From Schmidtea polychroa (lineage: Eukaryota), in the NCBI GenBank assembly GCA_044892525.1, contig CM097885.1, positions 11,782,001 to 11,846,000 of the forward strand: a DNA stretch of 64,000 nucleotides, written 5' to 3'. Below, piece by piece: positions 3,565 to 60,195 of the stretch. Each line of letters starts with the position of its first letter. Positions within the stretch are counted from its first letter, which is position 1. Made by a program: the position numbers and the translations under genes. The notes beneath the pieces are model-generated. The model worked only from the letters and a program-made list of their open reading frames with translations, was not told the DNA's origin and did no database searches.

Positions 3565-3746
3565 GATGAGTCATCACGATGAGTCACCACGATGAGTCAC
3601 CACGATGAGTCATCACGATGAGTCACCACGGTGAGTCACCACGGTGAGTCACCACGGTGAGTCGCCACGATGAGTCATCATGATGAGTCATCACGGTGAG
3701 TCACCACGGTGATGCATCACGATGAGTCATCATGATGAGTCATGGT
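3565..3746. repeat. 13-bp tandem array (14 units) of AP-1-like TGAGTCA palindromes
   Basis: Units G[A/G]TGAGTCA[T/C]CA[C/T] read directly; 12 of 14 have a perfect TGAGTCA. Confidence 0.9.
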
Positions 3747-27280: not shown

Positions 27281-27375
27281 AGTAGTGAGGAATCTATGCA
27301 CCCCAGCACCCCCACCCTCAAAAAAAACATCGCTATTGACCCATATTTTCCACATTTATATGCTTTTTTACCCCA
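27281..27375 (+). repeat. Left terminal inverted repeat
   Basis: Reverse complement of 41613-41708 apart from one substitution and one base in an A-run. Confidence 0.95.
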
Positions 27376-28219
27376 TATTCTTCACTTTTTTACCCCATAT
27401 TCTTCACTTTTTTTAACTTTTAAACTTTGTCCCCTATTGCCATTAACCCTTAATTTCTTCCCTTAAAAGTAAAAAAGTTCGGAATAGATGTATTTATAGA
27501 TTAGTAATTCCGAGAAAAGGTAACGGGGTGCATAGATTCCTCACTACTTGGTCTTAAGGATTTAATGTTATAAGGATTTAATGTTATAAGAATATCAGAT
27601 TACCTAATTCATAATGATCTAGGTCGCCTGATCACCTTAAGGTTTTGAAAGTTTTAAAAATAAAAAATTTTATGAAAATAGTAAAACTGCTCTGAGAGGA
27701 CAGTGGTATTTTTTTTTTTTTTTTTTTTTTTCACTGTCCCCTCAACAGTTTTTTTTGATCCGGATCATTTTTTTTACTTATCAACCTCTTTCGTTTATCG
27801 AATCTCTTCCAATATACAAGCTGGCCAGACTCATACATCAGAATCAATCCGATAATAGCAGCACGCCTTATTATTCGCTTCTCGCTCACGAAGTCGATTT
27901 CAACGGCGTTTTAAGTGTGCTGCTCGAAAGTACAAATGAATTCGAAAGCGAATCCGAAAGAGGTCCGAAAACAACTGAGAAATAAATGTGCACATTACCG
28001 GGATCGATCCGGGGGAGTTCGAAAGACAGGTGGCGATAATTACCGGTTCGCCACCATCACCCGTTTCAATATTTTTTTTTTCATATTTATGTTTAAAAAA
28101 TAATTAATTAATAAAAAAATAAAATAAAATATACAAGTACTTTATAAATATAAGATACCCACACTATTTTCAATATTATTTTCAAATTTTTAATATTATT
28201 TTATGTTGAAAAAAAAACT

Positions 28220-28293
28220 AACCTCAGATGTGATTTGAACCACTATCCATTTGAACCACTGTGCCAGTCTATTCCCACTGCGCCATCAAGGTT
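28220..28293 (-). ncRNA. tRNA-like RNA polymerase III unit 1 (putative)
   Basis: A-box TGGCGCAGTGG (28285-28275), B-box GGTTCAAATC (28241-28232), terminal stem AACCTTG/TGAGGTT, and a T9 terminator at 28217-28209. Confidence 0.6.
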
Positions 28294-28539
28294 TGAATTT
28301 TTGTCATTTTTTAGACTATAAATAATCGATTCAAGTTCTTTAACTCTTTCCTGTAATTGTTTCATTTTCTTCAATCTTATATCAGCAACATCTACAGCCT
28401 TCATATAAAAATGTCGATACTTTTCATTATCTACCATCAACTCTTTGATGTATTCTAATGGTTCTTCTTCTCTTCTTTTCATTCTCTTATGTTTAACTTC
28501 ATTCAATTCATTTCTCATTCTTTCTTTTAACTCATCCAT
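28243..28539 (-). CDS. Small coiled-coil hypothetical protein
   Basis: 98-aa charged helical ORF with the AAAATG start context used by the other viral genes; its 3' end overlaps Pol III unit 1. Confidence 0.6.
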   Translation of the reverse strand: MDELKERMRNELNEVKHKRMKRREEEPLEYIKELMVDNEKYRHFYMKAVDVADIRLKKMKQLQERVKELESIIYSLKNDKNSNLDGAVGIDWHSGSNG

Positions 28540-28706
28540 TTTTATAAATATTTTTTTATTGGATATATTAATTTTTGGTAGTTAAAACGTTTTTGATCTT
28601 AAATTTCCAAGAGTTGCCGTTGACCAATCACCTTAAAAATTTGTAAAAGTACTAAATCGAGTATGCTGATCAATATTTTGTTTAAAAAAAAATATCGAAA
28701 AAAATT

Positions 28707-28779
28707 GACCAAAATCGAAAATTGAACCCGGTACTCCCGGTGATAAAATTGAAGCCTATTCCCACTCCGCTATAATGGC
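28707..28779 (-). ncRNA. tRNA-like RNA polymerase III unit 2 (putative, degenerate)
   Basis: 73 nt: GCCATTA, A-box TAGCGGAGTGG, T-arm CCGGGTTCAATT, 3' TTTTGGTC, then a T7 run. Shares AGTGGGAATAG with unit 1. Confidence 0.55.
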
Positions 28780-28837
28780 TTACATAATATATTTAATTAA
28801 TCCTATTGTGTGTGTGTGTAAATTTTAATATATAAAA

Positions 28838-30130
28838 ATGAATAACATAAATCTTAAAATTCAAGAAAAAAATAAATTAAATCTTGATTATAATAAAGAA
28901 TTTACTCATGAAATTAAAAAAAATGATATTTTAAAAATCTCTCCAACTTCAGGATCTATTGCAAACTTAAATCGTAGGGGTGATATAGTTTTTCAATCTC
29001 TTCAAACATCAAACCCTATAGATATTTGTAATGCCAAATTATATTATAAAATCGAATTAGAAATTGAAACAAACAAAGATATAACCCTAGAAAATAATTT
29101 CTTTCCAAATTTATTCTCCAACATGAGATTAAAACTAGGATCATCAGAAATTGAAACTGTTTTGCATCCGGGAGTATATTCTACAATGTTAAATTTTATT
29201 TTGACTGGTTGTGATTATAAAAACGAATATGGTGAATTAACAGGTTGGATTCCTGATGTTAATAAAGGGGATTTAGATAAAGATGGTTTAGATGTAAACC
29301 ATGGTTACCATAAAAGAGCTGAACTTTATAAATCTAAAAAATTTGAAGGTTATTTTGAATTAAAACACTTGTTTGGATTCCTTCAAAACTATAATCGTAT
29401 ACTTCATAATGTTTTTATAGAATTCATCTGTAATAGAGTAGAAGGTGATAAAAGATTGTTCTATGGAGCTGTAGATACAAAAGCTAAATTAAAATTATCA
29501 ACACTTGAATTACATATACCTGAATGGACAATAAACCCACATTCTGAGATTAAACTCCTTGAAAGATTAAATTCCAACAAGTCTATAAATGTAAATTATT
29601 TAAATAGAATCTGTAGTGAATTTAGTATGACAGAGGGTTCAACATATTCTATAAAGGTAGCAAATTTAGCATACCGACCAAGATATATCTTGATTGGATT
29701 CAAAGAAGTAGATTCATCTTTCCAAAAAAATAACAACTTGTTTATTCAAAAGATTGGAGTTGATAATTTAAAAACAATCCAAATTCAATTAAATAGTTCT
29801 TATTATCCAATAAATAGAATGGAATTTAATATTGAAAATAATGAAAACATATTCCCATATCTAAATTATATTGAAACATGTTATGATTTCAAAGTTGAAC
29901 CGCAATTAAGTTTAGAAGATTTCAAAAATTTATATTCTATATTTTGTATAAATGTTTCAGACCAAGATGATCGCCTAGCCATAAATAATGTTGATGTTAC
30001 ACTTCATGTAACAAAGGATTCTAATTTTAAAGCTAAAGTATATACATTAATATTAGAAGAAAAGAAAATAGAAATGAAATTATATGGTGGAAAGATTTCA
30101 ATAATCGAAAATGTTAGGGGAGATTCTTAA
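28838..30130 (+). CDS. Major capsid protein (double jelly-roll, Polinton PY/adintovirus hexon)
   Basis: 430 aa, beta-rich, with ENNFFPNLFS.MRL.LG..EIE...PG..ST, GWIPD, RPRYILIGF and IQLNSSYYP motifs typical of Polinton MCPs; gene context supports this. Confidence 0.85.
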   Translation: MNNINLKIQEKNKLNLDYNKEFTHEIKKNDILKISPTSGSIANLNRRGDIVFQSLQTSNPIDICNAKLYYKIELEIETNKDITLENNFFPNLFSNMRLKLGSSEIETVLHPGVYSTMLNFILTGCDYKNEYGELTGWIPDVNKGDLDKDGLDVNHGYHKRAELYKSKKFEGYFELKHLFGFLQNYNRILHNVFIEFICNRVEGDKRLFYGAVDTKAKLKLSTLELHIPEWTINPHSEIKLLERLNSNKSINVNYLNRICSEFSMTEGSTYSIKVANLAYRPRYILIGFKEVDSSFQKNNNLFIQKIGVDNLKTIQIQLNSSYYPINRMEFNIENNENIFPYLNYIETCYDFKVEPQLSLEDFKNLYSIFCINVSDQDDRLAINNVDVTLHVTKDSNFKAKVYTLILEEKKIEMKLYGGKISIIENVRGDS

Positions 30131-30147
30131 TATTTTAACATTTTAAA

Positions 30148-31557
30148 ATGTCTTTAAATAAATATTGGAGATGTGAAACTTGTAATTGTCAAGTTACAAG
30201 ACATCATAAAGCAAGCCATCTTAAAACTAAAAAACATACAGTAGGTGACCTAATTCCACGAGCTGGAGGCGATTTGCAATCTTCAAAAACAACATCTTCA
30301 ATATTAAAACCTTTTACTACAGAAAAATATCCAGGTGAAAGACATTTATTTAAACACAACTATACTGGACCAGGAACAAGATTAGATATTAGATTAGATG
30401 AAAATAATAATCCCAAACAAGTAGAAGAACCAATAAATAGAATTGATCAAGCAGCTTTAAAACATGACATTGCATACAATTCAACAAATCTTAGAGATAG
30501 ACATGTTGCAGATGTGAATTTAATACATGATTTAAATAGTATCCAAAATCCATCAACCCAAGAAAAGATTCAAAGAGCTCTAGTTAAATTAGCAATGAAA
30601 GGTAAGATTTTCATAGGCTTAGGACACAGTCCGATCACCATGGGTGCAAGACTTCCTAGAATAGCAAAAGATGTTGCTTATAAAAAGATTATCGAACAAG
30701 CAGAGATTGAAAGATCCCTCGAGAGTACAGCCAAGACTAGTTTACAAACCCCAACAGAATCAGAAATAAAATATGCAAAGGAATTACACCATGAATTTAG
30801 AAAAAATAAAAAATATTTAAAAGTTCAAGTACATGAAAAAGATCAAACATGGTCTGCAGATTTAGTCTTTATGCCCAAATCATCAGACCCTGAAAAATAT
30901 AAAATAATTTTAACTGTAATAGATTTATATACAAGATTTGCTTTTGCAAGATGTTTAGAAAATAAAACAGGATATTCTATTACAGAAGCATTTGAAAATA
31001 TATTTGAAGAAAATCAAAGAATCCCAAAATATTTATGGTGTGATAAAGGAACAGAATTTTATAACAAAGTTTTTACAAAGTTTTTAAATGAAAATGATAT
31101 AAAATTATATTCAACAGAAAACGAAGGAAAAGCAGTCGTAGTTGAAAGATTAAATAGAACATTAAAAAATAAAATGTGGAAATATTTTACTGCTATTGGA
31201 AAACAAAAATGGAACAATGAATTGTTACAAAAGATTGTAAATGAATATAATAATGATGTACATAGTTCTATAAAATTAACACCTTTAAATGCTTCCATGA
31301 AGCCTGAAACCATTAAAGTGGTAAATATTGAAAATGATGTTATTGAAAAACCAAAGTTTAAAATTGGTGACCGAGTAAGAATATTTAAATATAAAAATAA
31401 ATTTGAAAAAGGATTCACAGCAAAATGGACAAATGAAATTTTTATTATAAATAAAATACATTATACAACTCCAATAACATATAGCATCATTGATTTAAAT
31501 AATGAAAAAATATTAGGTAGATTTTATAATAATGAACTACAGAAAACAGATTTTTAA
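30148..31557 (+). CDS. Retroviral-type (rve) integrase with N-terminal zinc finger and parvovirus-like PLA2 domain
   Basis: CxxC..HLKTKKH; HNYTGPGT...PINRIDQAALKHDIAY; DDE core WSADL / WCDKGTEF / VERLNRTLK; C-terminal KFKIGDRVRI..FEKG...W..E.F. Confidence 0.93.
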   Translation: MSLNKYWRCETCNCQVTRHHKASHLKTKKHTVGDLIPRAGGDLQSSKTTSSILKPFTTEKYPGERHLFKHNYTGPGTRLDIRLDENNNPKQVEEPINRIDQAALKHDIAYNSTNLRDRHVADVNLIHDLNSIQNPSTQEKIQRALVKLAMKGKIFIGLGHSPITMGARLPRIAKDVAYKKIIEQAEIERSLESTAKTSLQTPTESEIKYAKELHHEFRKNKKYLKVQVHEKDQTWSADLVFMPKSSDPEKYKIILTVIDLYTRFAFARCLENKTGYSITEAFENIFEENQRIPKYLWCDKGTEFYNKVFTKFLNENDIKLYSTENEGKAVVVERLNRTLKNKMWKYFTAIGKQKWNNELLQKIVNEYNNDVHSSIKLTPLNASMKPETIKVVNIENDVIEKPKFKIGDRVRIFKYKNKFEKGFTAKWTNEIFIINKIHYTTPITYSIIDLNNEKILGRFYNNELQKTDF

Positions 31558-31568
31558 GTCGACAAGCC

Positions 31569-32360
31569 CTAAAACAAACTTTTCCATATTTCAGCTTCTT
31601 CTCTATCCAAATAAATATAATTATATTTTTCTTTCCAATGATTATCAACAAACATATCAAACATATTCTTATCAGGTTCAACATTTGAAAATAAATCATT
31701 ATAAATCATATTCTTATCACGGCGATCTAATTTAAAAAATATAAAACAATTGGAATTATTTCTTATTGAATTTTTATCTAAAGCATAATATGTTTGAGAT
31801 ATATAAATAACATTACAATTATTATGTCGACCTCGTGTAAAGTAACTCTTTTGAATCTCTTGATTTTTCATATTAACAACATCATCAAATATAACTAGAT
31901 TCTTTTTATCTTTAGGAAGTAAATCACAATGTAAAACATCTTCAGGTTTATTAGAGAATAAAACTTGAATTGCCTCCTGCCCTTCTTCACAAATATAATC
32001 ATTTTTATTACTAATATCTGATTCTAAAATCTTTTCCTTATACCAATCAACCATATCACAAGGTTGAAAAACTTCTTCAGGACACCTATGTTGATTTTTA
32101 AAAATATCAATTATTGCTTTTTTAGTTAATTTATTTTCAAATCCACATTTCAAAAGTTGTAATTCTGGTTGATTTATGGTTGTAGAATAAAAGATTAAAT
32201 TATTATAATCTAAAAAATCATCTTCAAGTAACATTCTCAAAACAAGTACATTCTTTCCACATCCAGAAGAACCAACAATTAATAATCTAAAATTATCAGG
32301 AAATACTTTATTATTAAATTTACTCTTATGTCTATTTAAAATTGGTTTCCAAATATCCAT
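31569..32360 (-). CDS. A32/FtsK-like genome-packaging ATPase
   Basis: Walker A GSSGCGKN, Walker B LVIFDD, TRGRH..NVIYISQ and IRNN. Start placed at the AAAATG at 32360. Confidence 0.92.
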   Translation of the reverse strand: MDIWKPILNRHKSKFNNKVFPDNFRLLIVGSSGCGKNVLVLRMLLEDDFLDYNNLIFYSTTINQPELQLLKCGFENKLTKKAIIDIFKNQHRCPEEVFQPCDMVDWYKEKILESDISNKNDYICEEGQEAIQVLFSNKPEDVLHCDLLPKDKKNLVIFDDVVNMKNQEIQKSYFTRGRHNNCNVIYISQTYYALDKNSIRNNSNCFIFFKLDRRDKNMIYNDLFSNVEPDKNMFDMFVDNHWKEKYNYIYLDREEAEIWKSLF

Positions 32361-32375
32361 TTTGTTTATTATAAA

Positions 32376-32954
32376 ATGACAACTGAAGAATCTTTGCAAG
32401 AATTAATAAATTCAAATAAAAATAAATCAGTAGTAATTGATGGTAAAAAATATTTTATTGGAAAACATGTAAAAGAACAAGTGAGAGCGAAGATCCACGA
32501 AGCTAAAGAAGGTGGCATTCTTCCATTAGCTGCTTTAATACCTGCAATCATTGCTGGTTTATCAGGTGCTGCTGGAATAGCTGGAGGAATTGCAACTACA
32601 GTTCAAAAAGCTAAAGAATCTCAAAAGACAGACCTAGAAAAAGAAAAACTACAAACTGAAATCGATTCAATGAAGAAGGTAGAGCAAGCTAAAGGGGGAG
32701 TGTCCGTTGGAAAGGGTTTCTATCTTAATCCATATGAGGGGAGTCGGCAAAAGTCTCAGGGCAAAGGTCTCTATCTTGATCCTTATAAAGGTAGAGGTTT
32801 AAATGATTTTTTAAAAAATCAAATTTCTACATCTGAATCTTTATCTTCAAAAGATAAAGAAGATTTTAAAAAAATATGTAAATCTTTAAAGAATGGATGC
32901 CTTTGTAAAACTAAAAATGGTAAAGGATTATACTTGAAGCCCTTCGAACTATGA
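32376..32954 (+). CDS. Core/membrane-active protein resembling adenovirus pX
   Basis: GGILPLAALIPAIIAGLSGAAGIAGG resembles adenovirus pX GGILPLLIPLIAAAIGA; three GKG[F/L]YL.P repeats follow. Confidence 0.75.
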   Translation: MTTEESLQELINSNKNKSVVIDGKKYFIGKHVKEQVRAKIHEAKEGGILPLAALIPAIIAGLSGAAGIAGGIATTVQKAKESQKTDLEKEKLQTEIDSMKKVEQAKGGVSVGKGFYLNPYEGSRQKSQGKGLYLDPYKGRGLNDFLKNQISTSESLSSKDKEDFKKICKSLKNGCLCKTKNGKGLYLKPFEL

Positions 32955-32976
32955 TACCATTTTTGATACCATTAAA

Positions 32977-33858
32977 ATGGTATATGAAGAAAGATTAGCA
33001 CTTTTAAAAAAATTACAATCAGAACAAGATAAATATAATAAAAAAGATACAACTCAACATGCTGAATCTATAATATTAAATGAGGTAATAACACAACAAC
33101 AGGGGCCAACAATTAAAGCTATAAAAGAGTTGGAAGATTTCAATGAGCAAGCAAAATTTAAAGAGTTAGAAGATAAAAAACAAAAAATAAAAGAACTAGA
33201 GTGGCAGGATAAAGAAAAAGAATCCAGTGAAAACCATCCTGAAAGAAATCAAAGAAAACGCAGAAGGATTTCTAATGTGGAAGAAGAAGAAATGTTTTTA
33301 AAAACAAAACCTCTTAAAGTTGATCCTAAAATTAGAGATGATTTACCTCCTTCAATTAGACCCACATTTAATACTAATACTGAAGGATATCAAATAATAA
33401 CAATTAATAAACAAAACTTTACTTTATATTCAAATTCAGAAAATAAATCACGTATTCATTCACAAAATGTTTATAATAATGAATATTTAGACTTTGAATT
33501 TACAGATGATTTTTATAGATTACTTTGTGGATATTCTTCAGATGATGTTGAAGAAATTAAAAAATATTTAAATTTAATAAGATTAATAAGAGCTAGTTCT
33601 AAAGCAAAATATATTCAAGATTTAAAGAATTATTTAAATAAAAATGAAAAGGGTTATGTTGTTACAGAGGGAGAGGGATTAATTAGTGAAGGTGGTAAAC
33701 CAAATCCCATCAATCTTTTTATTGAATTAAGAAAACTATTAGCTGCAAGGAAAGCAGGACATAATAATTTAGATTCTGATATTTTAAAGATTTCTAAAGA
33801 TTTGTTAAAACAAGGAATAATTTCAAAAGATAAATTTAATAAGTATACGAAGTTATAA
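32977..33858 (+). CDS. Conserved Polinton/adintovirus protein of unknown function
   Basis: 293 aa; C-terminal G.G...L..LLAA.KAG.N....I..I...L...GII motif that I recognise from Polinton structural gene blocks. Confidence 0.7.
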   Translation: MVYEERLALLKKLQSEQDKYNKKDTTQHAESIILNEVITQQQGPTIKAIKELEDFNEQAKFKELEDKKQKIKELEWQDKEKESSENHPERNQRKRRRISNVEEEEMFLKTKPLKVDPKIRDDLPPSIRPTFNTNTEGYQIITINKQNFTLYSNSENKSRIHSQNVYNNEYLDFEFTDDFYRLLCGYSSDDVEEIKKYLNLIRLIRASSKAKYIQDLKNYLNKNEKGYVVTEGEGLISEGGKPNPINLFIELRKLLAARKAGHNNLDSDILKISKDLLKQGIISKDKFNKYTKL

Positions 33859-33880
33859 ATACGAAGTTTTAAAATACAAA

Positions 33881-34345
33881 ATGACTCCTTCAATATTAGA
33901 TTTTTTAAAAACATTTGGAATAAATGCAAAAACAAATTTTGATTTAAAAGATTATGCAAATTATTTAAATTTAAAAATTAAAATATTAATGAATGATGAA
34001 TTATCAAGTCTGGAGAGTCCCCTGAATATAATAATCAATTATCAAAATTCAAATGAAAAAGGATCTCATTGGGTTTGTATATATAAGAAATCTATCTACT
34101 TTGATTCTTTTGGGATTAAACCTACTAAAGAAGTTGAAGATTATCTCTTGAGGGGTTCTCCGATTGATTCCCCAAATGGTTATACTTTTAACTCTTTACA
34201 AGTTCAACCTTTGAATACTAAAATATGTGGTATTTTAAGTTTATATGTTTTGTATAGATTGAATAAGGGAGAGGGAAAGGGGCATACGCAGGATTTTGAA
34301 TCTATAATTCAAGAAATTTATAATGATCTAGAATCTCTACTATAA
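33881..34345 (+). CDS. Adenain-like cysteine protease
   Basis: IIN...GSHWV, YFDSFG and VQ....ICG provide the His/Asp/Gln/Cys catalytic set. Confidence 0.92.
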   Translation: MTPSILDFLKTFGINAKTNFDLKDYANYLNLKIKILMNDELSSLESPLNIIINYQNSNEKGSHWVCIYKKSIYFDSFGIKPTKEVEDYLLRGSPIDSPNGYTFNSLQVQPLNTKICGILSLYVLYRLNKGEGKGHTQDFESIIQEIYNDLESLL

Positions 34346-34393
34346 GGATTTTTACTATAAGGATTTTTACTATATGAATTTACTACTAAAGAA

Positions 34394-35158
34394 ATGGAGC
34401 TTCACAACCCTCCGGAAGATAATTTTAAAAAAATGGTAAACATAATGTCAGATAAATATTCAAGAACTTTATCTATAAATTCAAAAGAATCAGAGTTTAC
34501 TATAAACTTTCAAGATTCAATTAAATTAGATCAAAATTTAAATTATGAATTGGGGCTATTATGGTTTTGTGCTTATAATACTATTTTTAATATAACTAAA
34601 GATAATAATAAATTTACTATTCAAACTCGTGATGGGCATAAACCAGAAATTATAACAATAGAACCTGGGGTATATGAGATAAAAGATTTAAATGATATAC
34701 TTTCTAAAAAAACAAATGAAGGTATTAAAATTAAAATGGATATACCAACTTCAAAATGTGTAATGACTTTGAAGAATATAAAAATTAGTTTTTTAGATAA
34801 TTGTTTCTTTCACACAGTTTTAGGATTTAAACCTATGGATATAACAATAAAAGAAGATAAAATAATAACATCAGAACATATTATAAAAATAATAAATACA
34901 AACACAATAAATATTCATTGCGATTGTATAACAGGTTCTTATAATAATGGTAAACAAACAAATGTTTTATATTCCTTTCCCTCAAACACAGTTCCTATGG
35001 GATATAAAATAGTTGAAAGAATGAATCCTCCAAATTATTTACCTTTATGTAGAAAATATATAATGGATATTAATTTTAAAATTCTTAATCAAGAAGGAGA
35101 ATTGATTGATTTTAATGGAGAAGAGATTTCAATGTATTTACATTTGAAACAGGTTTAA
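34394..35158 (+). CDS. Minor capsid protein (penton, single jelly-roll)
   Basis: YELGL, NTIFNI..NNKF, I.PG.YEI, INIHCD.I.GSY.NG, P.GYKI.E....P.Y.P and NQ.GELIDFNGE motifs. Confidence 0.88.
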   Translation: MELHNPPEDNFKKMVNIMSDKYSRTLSINSKESEFTINFQDSIKLDQNLNYELGLLWFCAYNTIFNITKDNNKFTIQTRDGHKPEIITIEPGVYEIKDLNDILSKKTNEGIKIKMDIPTSKCVMTLKNIKISFLDNCFFHTVLGFKPMDITIKEDKIITSEHIIKIINTNTINIHCDCITGSYNNGKQTNVLYSFPSNTVPMGYKIVERMNPPNYLPLCRKYIMDINFKILNQEGELIDFNGEEISMYLHLKQV

Positions 35159-35184
35159 CGAAGTCCATTTTAAATTATTAATAA

Positions 35185-36195
35185 ATGAGTTCTTATATTC
35201 CATGTAATAGAGGTGGTGGAACAATAAAAACAGGGTTTAATACAGAAGAAATATTAACTTTAACAGAAAATAAATATATTAATGAAAGAGGTGATTCAAT
35301 GAAGGGTGATTTAATTTTAAATGGACACAAAATAAAAGAATTATCTTTTCCAACTGATGAAGCTGATGCAGTTAATAAGAAATATGTAGATGGTGTTAAA
35401 AAATATACTGATTTAACAACAACAAGAATTGAAAGTTCATTAACAACAAAAATTGATTCAATGGAATCAAAGCTTAATAATATCGAACAACGATTTAATG
35501 ATAAATTTGACAAGTTACAAAGTCTGTTAACTGAACAAGTTGTAAAGTTAAATACTGCTATATTAAATTCTAAAGATAAACAAATTATGAATACTAAATT
35601 TAATACAATATATAAAATAATAAATGAGATGATTACATCATTTAATAAAAGAATTTCAAATTTAGAGTCTCATGGAACACACATTAACACCACACATAGT
35701 ATTAGAAAAAGAGCTGCTGAATTAGAACAGAATAAAACATTATTACCCCATACATATAAACATTTTATAGAACCAAGTTTAATAACAACAAACAGTAAAG
35801 AATGGGGTGTTTTTATGGTTGTAAAAATTATTGATCCTTATTTCTTTTTGTTTGATGATGATAATGAAAGAATGAAATGGTTTGTGAAATGTGATTATAA
35901 TAGTAAGCTTGAAAAGGGTGATGTTATAATGACTAGTTATGATTTACCACACGGAGATTGGTATGTTAATACTCATTCACATGGACTACATAAAGTTAAA
36001 AGTAAGAATATTCATTTTTCTAGTTCACTTGTACAATATATAGATTTAATATTTTATGAAAAAAAGGTTGATGTTGATGAAGTTCGTAAAGCATTGAGAG
36101 AATTGTATAAAGGTATCCTCTCAACAAGAGTTTCTTTTGATATCCGAGTATTGGTGCCAGATGGTGCTCAGAAGAATAAAGTCTTATTTTTTTAA
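35185..36195 (+). CDS. Putative fibre/spike-like protein
   Basis: GDSMKGDLILNGHKIKELSFPTDEADAVNKKYVD (trimeric fibre/adhesin neck-type repeat), then a long coiled coil and a globular C-terminus; lies directly after the penton gene. Confidence 0.6.
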   Translation: MSSYIPCNRGGGTIKTGFNTEEILTLTENKYINERGDSMKGDLILNGHKIKELSFPTDEADAVNKKYVDGVKKYTDLTTTRIESSLTTKIDSMESKLNNIEQRFNDKFDKLQSLLTEQVVKLNTAILNSKDKQIMNTKFNTIYKIINEMITSFNKRISNLESHGTHINTTHSIRKRAAELEQNKTLLPHTYKHFIEPSLITTNSKEWGVFMVVKIIDPYFFLFDDDNERMKWFVKCDYNSKLEKGDVIMTSYDLPHGDWYVNTHSHGLHKVKSKNIHFSSSLVQYIDLIFYEKKVDVDEVRKALRELYKGILSTRVSFDIRVLVPDGAQKNKVLFF

Positions 36196-36203
36196 TTATT
36201 AAA

Positions 36204-36815
36204 ATGGAAGAAGTAAGAGAAGAAAATATTTACCCAGAATTGAGATCATCAGGATATTATTCCGAAGGTCACAAAGGTTCCAAGGCCTCAGCTCCCACAG
36301 AACTTGAAATTATGAGAGTAAAAGAATTTAAATCAGAAACCTTACATTTAAAAGATTTATTAAAGCATTATAAAAAAATTAAAAATAGATGGAATAAAGG
36401 GAATACAGTTTTAAAAGTTATAGGTTATTCTTTAGGATTTGCATCTGCAATATTAACTGTTATTTTACCCATAACTTTACCAGTTGTTACTCTTGCACCT
36501 GTAATACTTGGAAGTATTTCTGTGGCTGATGGTTTCTTAACTGAAATAGTTTCATTATCTTATACTTCTAAAAAGAAAAGTTTATATAGAGAAGTTTGTT
36601 TATCAATAGAATTAGGAATCTCTAAATTATTTTTATTTCAATTAAAAGCTTTGGAAGATGGAATCCTGACAGACGAAGAAATAATGAAATCAAATCAAAT
36701 AATACAAGATATAAAGAATGAGGTTATAAGATTAAAAAGGGAGGGCATGGTGGCTAATGTTATAAGTAATAAAAAAACATCTCGAGAAAAATGGTTAAAG
36801 AATTCTTACTTATAA
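36204..36815 (+). CDS. Putative membrane protein with a hydrophobic hairpin
   Basis: IYPEL..SAP N-terminus, coiled coil, long hydrophobic segment and ALEDG.LTDEE motif. Confidence 0.7.
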   Translation: MEEVREENIYPELRSSGYYSEGHKGSKASAPTELEIMRVKEFKSETLHLKDLLKHYKKIKNRWNKGNTVLKVIGYSLGFASAILTVILPITLPVVTLAPVILGSISVADGFLTEIVSLSYTSKKKSLYREVCLSIELGISKLFLFQLKALEDGILTDEEIMKSNQIIQDIKNEVIRLKREGMVANVISNKKTSREKWLKNSYL

Positions 36816-36893
36816 AATGGGTGTATTTTTAAAAAAGTAGATCAGGTTGCTATAGTTGCTTAAATTAATTGTCGACATTTTATTATTAAAAAA

Positions 36894-37448
36894 TTAAATA
36901 TCGTTGAAAGCCAACCTATGAATCATTAATTTATGATCTTTAAATTCTTTATCACTTAGACCTTTTATATATTCAGGATCAGTATTAAAATATTTAAGTT
37001 CTAAACATATAGGATTAAAAACTTGAGAATATAAAGGTTTCTCGATTTCTCTCTGGGGATAAATAATTTCAACATTATAAATATCAAGATCAGTAATCTT
37101 TGTATCATATAACTTATTCAACTTTTCTAGATTTTTTATTATAGGGATTAAATTATTTCCAATAGGTAGAGTTGTCTTTAAATCACTTAGTATGAATCTC
37201 TTATCATCATAATTTGATAATGATACTTTTTGAGATTCTATCAAGTGAATATCATGGTTTTCACTTTTAAGTTGATGTATTTCATCAATTTTATCTTTAT
37301 GATTTGGGTTTAATGTATCTATATAATCTTGATGAGAAAGATTCTTTGCAACCACTCTCTGTATTCCTTTACATCTGTTATCCTTTAAATTAGTAATATT
37401 TTTTATAATTTCAAAAATGTTATTTTCTTGATTTTTAGTTTCCATCAT
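36894..37448 (-). CDS. Stand-alone paralogue of the pPolB C-terminal (thumb/tail) region
   Basis: Aligns by eye with the last ~165 aa of the adjacent PolB (KGIQ, NYDDKRFILSDLKTTLPIGN.LIPIIKNL, ELKYFNTDPEYI.GL). Has its own TATAAAATG start and stop. Confidence 0.8.
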   Translation of the reverse strand: MMETKNQENNIFEIIKNITNLKDNRCKGIQRVVAKNLSHQDYIDTLNPNHKDKIDEIHQLKSENHDIHLIESQKVSLSNYDDKRFILSDLKTTLPIGNNLIPIIKNLEKLNKLYDTKITDLDIYNVEIIYPQREIEKPLYSQVFNPICLELKYFNTDPEYIKGLSDKEFKDHKLMIHRLAFNDI

Positions 37449-37472
37449 TTTATAGTGTTAAAATTCTAATTC

Positions 37473-40400
37473 TTAGACCAGTCGTAATTGATTTATAATT
37501 ATTTCTGCGGTAATGCTTTTTAACATTAATTTATGTGATTTAAAGTCTTCTGGTGTTAGTCCTTGGATATATTCAGGATCAGTATTAAAATATTTAAGTT
37601 CTATAGGTTTTATATTTTGAACTTGATTATATAAAGGTTTAGGAATTAATATTTCAGGATATTGGATTTCTACTTTAGCAAGTTGAAGGTCTGTAATCTC
37701 TAGGTTATAAATTTCATTTATTTTATCAAGATTTTTTATTATAGGGATTAAATCATTTCCAATAGGTAATGTTGTCTTCAAGTCAGAAAGTATAAATCTT
37801 TTATCATCATAATTTGTTATAGCAATCTTGTTACACTCTTCAAGATATATATTATGTTTCTCTGATTTAAGATGATGGGTTTTAGCAATTTTATTTTTAT
37901 AATTTATATTTAATGAATCTTTATACTCTTGATGTGTGAAGGTTTTTGACACTGATTTTTGAATTCCTTTACTTTTATTTTCTTTATAGCTTTTCGGGTT
38001 TTCAGGGAATGAAGGATATTCAAATGTTCGATCTACTTCAACAGATCCTTCTATTATAAATTTTATTGTATGCTCTTTCATAATTGGTTTGTCTTTCATT
38101 TCAAGAGAATATTGTTTAGGTCTAATAAACACTCCTCCAGTTATTGGAGTATTTGGTTTTTCATCTTTAAAAGTAAACAACTCTCCAGAATTGTTTATTA
38201 ATTTATTTAAGGTTGGATCTTCACGTATTTCTTTTTTTAAATCTTTGCTATATCCTTTTAAAAACATACTATCAGTGTCCATTGCATGCATGGATATTCG
38301 ATCTCCAAAATGTGGTACTAGAACATCATAGTAGGCTTCATACATTTGAAGCTTTGAAAGTTCTAAAATTGAAAACCCTATAAAGATTGGTTTATTATAA
38401 GTTTTTACAGAGTTTTTAATCTCTATGGCTATAAGGTTACTAGAGAATATCTCGGCATTTTTAAATGTGGGCTTTCCAATTATCCGGTTGTACCTATTAA
38501 GGTCTTTGGATGTATTGGTCAAAAGCTCTACACGTGTGTACTTGTCTATATTCTCCATGGTCTTTCCAAAGACCGCATTGTTCAGGAGTTTGTAAATCAT
38601 ATCAAGAAATGCATTTCCAGCTCTCTTTGCTGCATTTCTTTTCAAAATATTTCCCTCTATGAATTTTTTCATAAAAGGGGCTTGTCGAAATTTAATAATG
38701 GAATGTACTTTTTTTAAAACCATTCCATGGGAGAGATAAAACTGAAAGAGTCTATAATGACAAAGGTAATCAGTTTTATCGGTCTGATCGCATAAAAGTT
38801 TTATACAGGGCGATCTATCCTGAGCCATCTGCCAGTCTGAAAGTTCTTCAGTCGAGATCTTTCTTCTTACTGGAGCAAATGGAAAGAATCTTGTCCTGGA
38901 TTTTATTTCATTGGGATATTCAAGATCGCATTCTATGACATATCCATATTGTGAATTCTTTGGTGTTTTTAGAATTTCTTGTATTAATTCCTCAGTGGGC
39001 TCTTCCCAGGTGAACTTGCCAATTGGAAGGTATTGAGTCATTACTCCTGCATATAAAGCTGTTGCATCTATATACATTATTTCAGAAGGATTAGAAAGAC
39101 CTTCCAGTATTTCCTCACGATCTTCTGGGTTTGTTATTTCTACATATAGAGCATCAGTATCTTTGAAAAATTTAGGATAAAGAGTTGTAAAATTATTAGC
39201 ATTTATTTCTCTATTCCCTTGTACTGAAGAAATACCTCCTCTAATATTATGTTTATATACATTAAACATATCAAGGTCAACTAATAATTCAATGGTTTTA
39301 TTTCTTTCTGCTATGTCTTCATCGGTCCATATGCTATATAATAATATATCCCAAGCTAGAGAGGGAGCGGTTATATAATTATAAGGTTTTAATTCAAAAG
39401 CTTTTGAAAATGTCTCGAAGCAATCAGCTAAGATATAAACATCTAAGGAAAGATACATGTCAGTATATTCTCCAAGGTTTCTACAGTTGAAAAGATTCCA
39501 CATTTTAAGTGCACGGGAATATTCCTGATCAGAAATCCCTGATTGTGTTAAAACAGAAAAGAAATCTTCTTGAGCTGGGAGTAATTCATTATATTTTTCA
39601 AAGGAGTCTATATAATCATATGGATAGATTCCTTTTGCTAGACAGGTATTATATTCCTCTAATGGAATATTGTTTTTTAATAACACATGTTCTTTTGTAT
39701 ATTTAAAATCCTCAGGGTTCATAGTTTTTGCAATGCCATCCAAAGACATCCCTAAGAAATTTAAGGAGTCCAAAAACTTAAAGCATCCATATTGAATGCT
39801 TTTATATTTTTCTTTTGTAAGTCCAATAACCTTGAAAGAGTTTTTAGCATTTGCAGCTAGATGTTTAATGAACAGGTGAATATCATAGCCAAAAAGATTG
39901 TGAAATATAAATGGTATGTGTGTTGGTTTTTTACAATTGAGATTACAATTTTTATGGGCCGCTCCTCTGTAATTATTTTCTATTTTAAAATGATCATGGT
40001 CAGGAACCTTTAGTTCACTAGTTGACTCCTCATCCTCAAACTCTTGTTTGCACATCCAGCAGTGTGTTGCATTTTTATATTCTTCCTCTTGTTCTTCTGA
40101 AAAATTCATAGGAAAGTTGGATTTTAATATATAATTCATGTTCTAGATTATTTAAAGTTTCAACAAAATGGTCTAGAGTCTCTTTGTCAGAAGTTCCCCT
40201 AAATGAATATTCTCTAGATTCTACAAGTTCTGGATAATTACTTTTGAAAAACATTTTATAAGCAGAGGGTAATTGTTTTGTTAGTTTTACAGTAGTAGTT
40301 TTTGTTCGTCTTAGTTTTACATTTATAGCTTCAAAATCACAATAAACCACTCCCAATGCTTCTAATAGATTGGAATAGTTTTTAAACCTCATATTAGCAT

Positions 40401-41609
40401 TTTTCTTGTGTGGCATTTTTATTAAAGCAGGTTGATTCTTACAACAGAGTCTCTCATGTTTAATAGCAGCAAGTTTTGAAGTTGAATGATATAAACATCT
40501 TTTACAACATATGCCTCCACGAATGAGTGTGTTTCCTTTCATAAAACTTTGAAAATTCTTTATTAAGATATAATGAAGTTTTTTATCTAACATAGTGCCT
40601 CCGGACGCAGTGCTTTCTGCTTCTGGTTCTAATGAAATGCCTTCTTCTGCTTCCATAACCTTCGGGTGAATACTTTGAACCTCTTCACCATATTCTTCTC
40701 CATCAAACTCTTCGTCTGCTTTACCTTCTTCTAATATTAAAAGATCTACTTCTCTCTTTTCATCTGAGATTTCCATATTAGAAATGTAAATAGGAATAAT
40801 TTGTTTATAATTTTTATTTTTTCTAGTTTTTGTAATTTTGGTTGGAATGAATTGATAAATATTAATTTTAAGATTATTTAATTTTTCAAATGCTGGAACA
40901 TCTTCAATTTTCATTGGGTGGGAAAAATCTTTTGGATATATTAATTCAGATTCATATTCTTCATATTTTTGAACTCTCTGTGGGTTAGTTGCTTGAGGAT
41001 GTAAGTGTGCAAGTATTGACCATTGAAAACATTTATTATCTTTATTCTGTACATTTATAACATGGTTGGAGGTGAATGGTGTATGAATAAAAGATTTAGG
41101 ATTTGGTGGTGCACCTCTCCAGTATTCAATCTCTATGTTTTGAAAAGAGTGGAATCTTAAATTAGATTCTCCTAGTTCTTGTTCCACCTGTTCTTGTTTT
41201 TCTTCCAATTCTTTAGCTATATCATTAACAAGTTTATTTCCTGCTTTTGTAGAAAATAAATATTTATATGAGGTTTCAATTTTTACATCTAGAGGCATTG
41301 CGATCGAATCATCTCCTCTCCAGTATTTTGCATTTCCTGTAAATTTAATTTTTATAACATTAAATCTTGATCTACCAAATTTTTTTATAGCATCATCCAT
41401 TGATGATATTATTTTTTTTTATTTTCTCTTATATATTGCATGATTGATCTGGGTCCTCGTTTTACTTCTGCAATTACATCGGTGTGATTGAAGTCATCCC
41501 AATTAAACTCTAGTTTTTCAGCTTTTTCAGTCATTGAGTTTGAATCAGAATCTTTTGCTTCAAGACCACAATCTTCTATGTGTCTTAAGTAAAAAGATTT
41601 TATCCTCAT
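37473..41609 (-). pseudogene. polB: Protein-primed DNA polymerase B split into three ORFs by two frameshifts
   Basis: ORFs 41409-41609, 40075-41400 (QNKDNKCFQW...HY, YCDFEA) and 37473-40139 (DHDH, FHNL.GYD, KGIYPY, YIDATALY, KLLNNAVFGK, MDTDS, DDKR). Confidence 0.9.
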
Positions 41610-41612
41610 CTT

Positions 41613-41708
41613 TGGGGTAAAAAAGCATATAAATGTGGAAAATATGGGTCAATAGCGCTGTTTTTTTTTGAGGGTGGGGGTGCTGGGGTGCATAGATTCC
41701 TCACTACT
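41613..41708 (-). repeat. Right terminal inverted repeat
   Basis: Ends ...GGGGTGCATAGATTCCTCACTACT. Confidence 0.95.
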
Positions 41709-59589: not shown

Positions 59590-60195
59590 TGACTCATCAA
59601 GGTCATTGAAACAAAGACCATGACTCATAGTATGACTCATCAAAATTCTCAAGGTCATTTAAACAAAGACCATGACTCATCCTATGACTCGTCAAGGTCA
59701 TTTTCAAGGTCGTATGACTCATAATATGACTCATCAAGGTCAAAAAATTTTTTTCAAGGTCATTTAAACGAAGACCATGGCTCATCAAGGTCATTTTCAA
59801 GGTCAAATGAGTCATACTATGACTCATATGACCTTGAAAATTTTTTTCAAGGTCACCTGACTCATCCTGTGACTCATCAAGGTCATTTTCAAGGTCATAT
59901 GCGTCATAGTATGAGGCATATGCCCTTGAAAAAATTTTCTCAAGGTCAAATGACTCATACTATGACTCATATGACCTTGAAAAAAATTTCTCAAGGTCAT
60001 ATGACTCATACTATGACTCATCGACATTTTTTCAAGGTCATATGACTCATACCATGACTCATCAAAAATTTTCAAGGTCATTTTCAAGGTCATCTGAGTC
60101 ATCCTATGACTCATCAAGGTCATTTTCAAGGTCGCATGACTCATCCAAGGTCATTCCAAGGTCATATGAGTCATCGCGATGACTCATCAAGGTCA
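59590..60195. promoter_or_regulatory. Dense array of TGA[C/G]TCA (AP-1-like) and YCAAGGTCA (NR5A/ERR-like) motifs
   Basis: About 20 of each motif by hand count in about 600 bp; function is inferred. Confidence 0.6.

Follow-up and report, generated by a model that had tools for sequence, protein, structure and literature searches.

Are two short tRNA-like units in front of the capsid gene of an endogenous Maverick/adintovirus element small RNAs made by the virus, or do they serve the element, if at all, in another way? The units lie in a 64,000-nt stretch of the Schmidtea polychroa genome (the window), and a preliminary description had proposed them as two paralogous Pol III genes analogous to the adenovirus VA RNAs, acting in counter-defence or as an insulator. 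Mavericks have so far been treated as protein-coding cassettes, and the viruses in which Pol III RNAs are known comprise adenoviruses, gammaherpesviruses and some retroviruses. The proposal was partly supported: the units are real, element-borne and partly host-derived; its insulator half coincides with our best reading, while the VA-like candidate is instead an adjacent 385-nt unit that had not been listed. The statement that no description in Polintons was known also agrees with the literature covered here (including PMC6431247 and bioRxiv 10.64898/2025.12.11.693146, with subscription papers and Repbase outside its scope), the accessible text of which mentions neither non-coding RNAs nor Pol III units for Mavericks.

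Pfam matches and inverted ends confirmed the adintovirus setting. The element occupies 14.4 kb (27281..41708, no strand assigned) between inverted ends at 27281 and 41708, and encodes a double-jelly-roll capsid (PF21738), PLA2 and rve integrase domains, an A32 packaging ATPase and a pPolB, broken into pieces in this copy; the major capsid protein gene (28838..30130, forward strand) stands head-to-head with the tRNA-like units. Five of five sister element pairs have terminal inverted repeats of 0.4-1.2 kb with AGT ends, and their 6-bp target-site duplication was perfect in three, had one mismatch in another and could not be called in the last; the window copy itself has a right repeat of only ~95 nt and no duplication at its ends. 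A capsid 20-mer was found in 1,965 genome copies and at 60/60 loci checked, giving a family of about 2,000 copies (all copy counts were taken in a 781-Mb genome with four large contigs).

Several further features of the window and its relatives were recorded. The left terminus (27281..27548, no strand assigned) starts with AGTAGT; its terminal 24 nt recur internally in inverted orientation at 27525-27548 and could fold back. A 184-aa ORF (36894-37448 versus 37473-37823) is a diverged duplicate (75% nt) of the C-terminal part of the polymerase. Comparison of L092, L094 and L096 with window positions 37473-41400 revealed two polymerase types, ~71-75% identical at the nucleotide level, with the same capsid module; as these two types and at least two terminal sequences are joined to one capsid module, the subfamilies are mosaics. 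Part of the polymerase gene of a second high-copy Maverick family (repeats of 0.5-0.9 kb) lies at 159-2312, and this family had no tRNA-like unit in the 5/5 regions searched in the same genome. A tandem array with many ATGACTCAT and TCAAGGTCA words occupies 59597-60175, with a similar 13-bp array at 3565-3742, and a host flank (L101:8331-8429) bears a weak similarity to metazoan SRP RNA, in the latter's 5' part (29.6 bits, E = 8e-4).

Both tRNA-like units lie on the reverse strand, and their coordinates, box motifs and terminators, together with the flaws already conceded for unit 2, were as reported. Unit 2 (28707..28779) has an A-box at 28772, an imperfect GGTTCAA B-box at 28728 without the conserved C, internal T4 runs and a T7 terminator at 28704-28698. 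Unit 1 (28220..28293) has an A-box at 28285, a T9 terminator at 28217-28209 and its B-box word twice (28257 and 28241). The terminators are placed as in host tRNA-Lys and tRNA-Arg genes (T6-T7 within 3-5 nt), and the sequence said to be common to both units is an 11-mer found twice in the window. A generic A-box..B-box..T4 pattern, devised after the preliminary description had been read, matched exactly two places in 64 kb, namely units 1 and 2, and had 0 matches in 300/300 dinucleotide shuffles of the element.

Neither is a functional tRNA gene: ARAGORN found 0 tRNAs in the window and in 12/12 sister loci, Rfam gave 0 matches at the gathering cut-off for either unit, and a cloverleaf with paired acceptor and anticodon stems is missing. 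Unit 1 may resemble tRNA-Trp, and a pattern searched for such an origin gave 0 matches. The reported pairing of 5' and 3' ends did not exceed chance; neither of the two units folds better than shuffles (z = +0.16 and -0.37), so little can be made of the paired ends. The final codons of a 98-aa ORF that belongs to no known family (28243..28539, reverse strand) overlap unit 1; searches with this ORF yielded no homolog and atlas matches were uninformative. Coding constraint was rejected as the cause of unit-1 conservation, because the variable tail of this ORF, which enters unit 1, ranges from ~80 to 104 aa and many copies lack the ORF altogether.

A shared-motif pattern had 3,057 genome matches and 0 in a reversed control. 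Inspection covered fifty matches within the first 26 Mb of contig 1, a sample that missed the rDNA arrays; 49 lay in Maverick sequence and one (L031) in an rDNA spacer. Sixty loci ascertained by their capsid gene comprised 29 with units 2+3+1 (unit 3 is described below), 26 with unit 1 only, two with units 2+1, one with units 2+3, one with units 3+1 and one with none, the 2+1 layout being that of the window copy and its identical duplicate. At least one unit was thus present in 59/60 loci, which supports units that move together with the element; unit 1 was kept in 58/60 and unit 2 was absent from 28/60. Unit 1 lies within the ~1-kb terminal inverted repeat of full copies, inside a 0.9-1.2-kb repeat in 4/5 element pairs and often in tandem, and so faces outward at both ends. 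Together with the repeat's 3' flank it has 2,809 copies (forward-strand matches, 1,376 with the flank versus 1,443 without it in the pattern). Sister copies vary by two or three B-box words or by extra whole units, tandem units being ~233 nt apart, and many copies of differing layout have a unit that begins 44-63 nt upstream of the capsid start.

In other samples, a run bearing a second species label has contigs that cover unit 1 and the neighbouring long unit, and two other runs have contigs in which the sequence joins across units 2+3, indicating that the unit-1-only layout exists elsewhere. IMG/VR gave 0 relatives with DNA context. Among 30 metagenome loci (capsid identity 24-52%), a unit was found in 0/30 by pattern and in none of the 17/30 scanned with Rfam; this is no evidence of absence, since most loci are short and none was shown to reach an element end.

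Most sister copies carry a third, tRNA-Cys-like unit (unit 3), whereas the window copy has none and apparently lost the ~235 nt holding it by recombination between similar trailers. In L014, unit 3 scored 32.4 bits as an Rfam tRNA (cut-off 29) with broken acceptor and anticodon stems, and its fold is modest (z = -3.0). It equals a host tandem array (998 matches) at 13/14 bases through the GCA anticodon, which suggests the tRNA-Cys assignment. Host tRNA genes were also seen in long single-type tandem arrays (Lys with a 424-bp period, Arg, and a Cys-type with a 281-bp period) at G000:C4:76.66 Mb, C140, C333, C474 and C1:269.25 Mb.

Unit 2 in the window is identical at 73/73 positions to the spacer copy in L031 and thus to a host rDNA-spacer module of ~700 copies, which many Maverick loci lack, so that the claim of two paralogous virus-made units is not supported. 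Its core has 1,973 exact genome matches, nearly all accounted for by 1,245 copies tied to the capsid start and by 709 matches, ~13 kb apart, to the non-Maverick junction of L031. Among the 40 5.8S genes listed, 33 have a junction of this type 5.4-5.6 kb upstream on the opposite strand. The L031 spacer array, with ~240-nt spacing, contains a further tRNA-like unit (699 matches), unit 2 and three unit-3 copies, the number of the latter ranging from one to four per array outside L031. Degenerate tRNA-like arrays of this kind, antisense to rRNA and in ~700 repeats, were observed in host rDNA spacers (L031:1258-2300; rDNA contigs C21, C97, C115, C202 and C218) and are themselves unusual; the same literature, within the same scope, contained no report of tRNA-like arrays in a flatworm rDNA spacer. 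Near an rDNA repeat (L218:1-450), a diverged (82-85%) spacer-type unit 3 keeps its box words and a T8 run. Spacer relatives of unit 1 or of the long unit were judged by counts only, in spacers known in part.

The segment common to Maverick and spacer (28580..28826, reverse strand; ~235 nt with unit 3 lost here) coincides precisely with the insert by which copies carrying units 2+3 differ from those lacking them, short words are shared at both of its joints, and empty sites are seen in L184 and L185. These observations favour transfer from spacer to Maverick, and units 2 and 3 were most likely captured from the host. Spacer and Maverick modules differ at only 5/183 and 10/203 flank columns, which points to a recent capture; one diagnostic base in unit 3, together with the flanks, distinguishes the two. 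In the same comparison units 2 and 3 showed no excess conservation over their own flanks (p ~ 0.3 each), and since they vary no less by a significant margin, no selection on them was detected. The divergent subfamily L132, L133 has spacer-type unit-3 pieces near its ends in another position (one L133 piece without an A-box), which suggests a second capture.

Conservation of unit 1 was assessed in 80 haplotypes from 79/80 loci chosen by capsid or hairpin and not by the boxes. Variable columns numbered 1/21 in the boxes versus 20/57 in the rest of the unit (Fisher p = 0.008, with neither columns nor copies independent); compared with the flanks, the boxes were not better conserved (1/21 versus 11/74, p = 0.29; 3' flank alone, 1/37). 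The divergent copies L132 and L133 (capsid 85-87% nt) keep the A-box, B-box and T-run while the middle and 3' stem differ, and the end stems of unit 1 change without compensation. This is how a promoter would be expected to look if the sequence of its RNA were of little importance. Retention of boxes while the rest drifts, as expected of a tDNA/TFIIIC insulator, is seen inside unit 1, but not relative to its flanks nor in units 2 and 3.

We tentatively prefer, with slightly less than even confidence, to regard the short units as type-2 Pol III promoter-plus-terminator modules that would work mainly as DNA, as boundary or open-chromatin sites. TFIIIC would bind their A- and B-boxes, Pol III would make a short, disposable RNA of 75-90 nt, and the occupied site would keep local chromatin open or block the spread of silencing across the element ends and into the capsid-gene start. 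Unit 1 would be the family's long-standing version, its place in the terminal repeat flanking the element on both sides, and unit 2 would have joined it recently, together with unit 3, as a copy taken from the host array. tRNA genes and TFIIIC sites are described as heterochromatin barriers in the accessible text of PMC12409998, and planarian Polintons as piRNA/H3K9me3 targets in that of PMC8532177. This reading is supported by the low variation of the unit-1 boxes within the unit at loci not chosen by boxes, by the exchange of the middle in L132 and L133, and by changes that add B-box words or whole units instead of keeping a fold, no fold exceeding chance. The outward orientation at both ends in 4/5 pairs, the unit near the capsid start across layouts, terminators like those of host tRNA genes and the suggested second capture argue in the same direction. 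Against it stand boxes that are no steadier than the flanks of unit 1, units 2 and 3 that are no steadier than theirs, the 26/60 loci with unit 1 only, the second Maverick family without units, the L133 piece without an A-box, and the defective B-box and internal T4 runs of unit 2.

A possible though not probable alternative is that the units are neutral passengers, units 2+3 being a piece of spacer carried to high numbers by a subfamily that did well, and unit 1 an older acquisition that gene conversion between the repeats has kept uniform. The small flank differences between spacer and Maverick, without excess conservation of the units themselves, the frequency of copies without units 2/3, the contigs joining across them and unit-1 flanks as conserved as the boxes all fit such a history. 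Less easily accommodated are the concentration of change outside the boxes within unit 1, the retention of boxes and terminator around a replaced middle in divergent copies, and the presence of unit 1 in nearly all capsid-ascertained loci.

If a functional RNA is produced here, its source is more likely the adjacent, outward-facing candidate of ~385 nt (27680..28067, reverse strand) inside the terminal repeat, with a head stem, A-tracts, a terminal hairpin and T4/T4/T6 runs. It comprises a B-box-like word (28010-28000), a covarying arm (27923-27858) and a G-U-rich 25-bp hairpin (27855-27795). Folding z-scores in 5/5 copies were -5.9 to -8.0 on the outward strand versus -2.2 to -5.6 on the inward one. 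The hairpin contains 8 G-U pairs, with z = -5.3 on the outward strand versus +1.1 on the other and an energy of -25.8 kcal/mol as RNA versus -5.3 as DNA. Across 129 copies all six common variants keep pairing and breaks occur in 1-2 copies each, a pattern that says little by itself since so many G-U pairs make most transitions safe. More telling is a 7-bp arm in which L132/L133 (one lineage) have changed both sides of four pairs; one further pair is swapped among closer copies. The B-box-like word is nearly invariant; the A-box-like word varies and an internal T4 lies near 27965, which makes a Pol III origin of the long unit a guess. No Rfam family matches the unit; the hairpin 25-mer has 2,992 genome copies, and its arms have no long match elsewhere in the window. 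Contigs of three runs whose RNA status is guessed cover the long-unit region (L148:1833-2055) and the capsid gene, with units 1-3 thinly or not covered and the gap partly in skipped repeats; contig depth cannot rank the parts, so these runs provide no expression evidence.

The hairpin is pre-miRNA-like, and the supplements of PMC3854530 may list it as a known miRNA. In a distant Maverick relative (capsid 50% aa), a hairpin at L063:3889-3810 (reverse strand), in an intergenic gap and followed by T7, matches Rfam mir-754, a planarian miRNA family, with 48.6 bits (E = 9e-7), under the cut-off of 84; it hints that such elements also seed host 'miRNA' families. A family search and one pattern gave no match to mir-754 in the host, an uninformative result.

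The long unit is accordingly placed, as a predicted structure, ahead of units 1 and 2 as a VA- or TMER-like candidate. We regard as conceivable, if doubtful, a terminal-repeat cassette in which a ~385-nt structured Pol III RNA, processed to or acting like a miRNA/VA-type counter-silencing RNA, is flanked by tRNA-like boundary units repeatedly taken from the host rDNA spacer. If such a non-coding cassette is indeed conserved in the terminal repeats, the use of Pol III RNAs by viruses would reach as far as the Maverick lineage. It would also point to a way in which an element of 2,000 copies withstands piRNA silencing, and would mean that rDNA spacers and an endogenous virus have exchanged Pol III units.

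Alternatively, though we think it unlikely, the short units might assist transcription or replication nearby: by raising the local supply of Pol III machinery to the 385-nt RNA, adjusting the capsid promoter that stands head-to-head with them, holding copies near nucleolar or tRNA clusters, or forming polar fork barriers at the element ends. Unit 1 does share the long unit's direction, 140 nt upstream of it, and has a matching copy number (2,809 and 2,992), host copies reside in rDNA on the strand opposite to rRNA, as do the 5S genes carried by yeast rDNA, and a unit abuts the capsid start in several layouts; yet a T8-T9 terminator stands between unit 1 and the long unit. Quite improbable, too, is the idea that the short RNAs are VA-like decoys that titrate Dicer, La or factors of the piRNA pathway. 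In its favour, the transcripts should be discrete, given the intact terminators, templates number in the thousands, and in MHV68 the tRNA-like part alone can act (PMC8223928, in its accessible text). Neither short unit, however, has significant or conserved structure; their stems vary without compensation, the middle is replaceable, unit 2 is host sequence already present ~700 times in the genome, and the three-domain structure given for VA RNA in the accessible text of PMC7589676 is absent. The case for a VA-RNA role of the short units is weak, since neither folds better than chance. Finally, although tRNA-derived units in thousands of copies recall a dispersed host SINE inserted into the element, this is extremely improbable and contradicted by copy contexts (49/50 inspected matches in Maverick and one in rDNA spacer, with unit-2 copies explained by capsid-linked and spacer copies) and by a terminator directly after the head, with no body or tail and no dispersed solo copies with target duplication.

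Among known systems, adenovirus VA RNAs are ~160 nt long and consist of three parts (apical stem, central domain, terminal stem) and inhibit PKR, a kinase that is not known outside vertebrates; units 1-3 are ~75 nt and unstructured (unit 3 modestly structured). Like VA RNAs, units 1 and 2 combine an intragenic box A and box B with an oligo-T run, the B-box of unit 2 being imperfect. The three-domain structure with a GGGU-ACCC central stem is absent from units 1 and 2 (z ~ 0) and from the long unit, which at 385 nt has a different, multibranch fold without an Rfam match and lies in a terminal repeat. Shared with VA RNAI/II are tandem intragenic units ending in a U-run, a related virus lineage and a possible tRNA origin (PMC7589676, accessible text).

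MHV68 TMERs and the Pol III pre-miRNAs of BLV and foamy viruses are likewise degenerate tRNA-like units clustered at a genome end, and the TMER arrangement of a promoter head followed by a pre-miRNA-like hairpin and U-run resembles the 385-nt unit (accessible text of PMC8223928 and PMC4378190). Unlike TMERs, the Maverick tRNA-like units terminate at once and carry no hairpin, so that a tRNA-like head and a pre-miRNA hairpin do not share a transcript in units 1-3; the long unit joins a B-box-like head to its 25-bp hairpin, but that head does not form a cloverleaf, conservation does not extend to its A-box, and the unit is known from sequence and predicted fold.

The element itself agrees with Mavericks/Polintons that have an Alpha-type adintovirus virion module in capsid, rve integrase, ATPase, pPolB, PLA2-like domain, AGT ends and 6-bp target duplication (PMC8502044); the main text of that source notes tRNA gene predictions for MELD viruses alone, whose replicases are different, and leaves Pol III and VA RNA unmentioned. 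Pol III genes within each rDNA repeat are known as 5S genes in yeast and L-type plant rDNA, whereas here the units are degenerate, tRNA-like, arranged in ~240-nt subrepeats and shared with a Maverick. Closest to our preferred DNA-level reading are tDNA/TFIIIC (ETC) barriers and insulators, in which A/B-box sites stand at domain edges and the sequence between boxes is dispensable (PMC12409998, accessible text). Here, by difference, such sites would be carried by a mobile element at both of its ends as well as by the rDNA spacer, and whereas ETC sites are without Pol III, the Maverick units keep both an A-box and a terminator.
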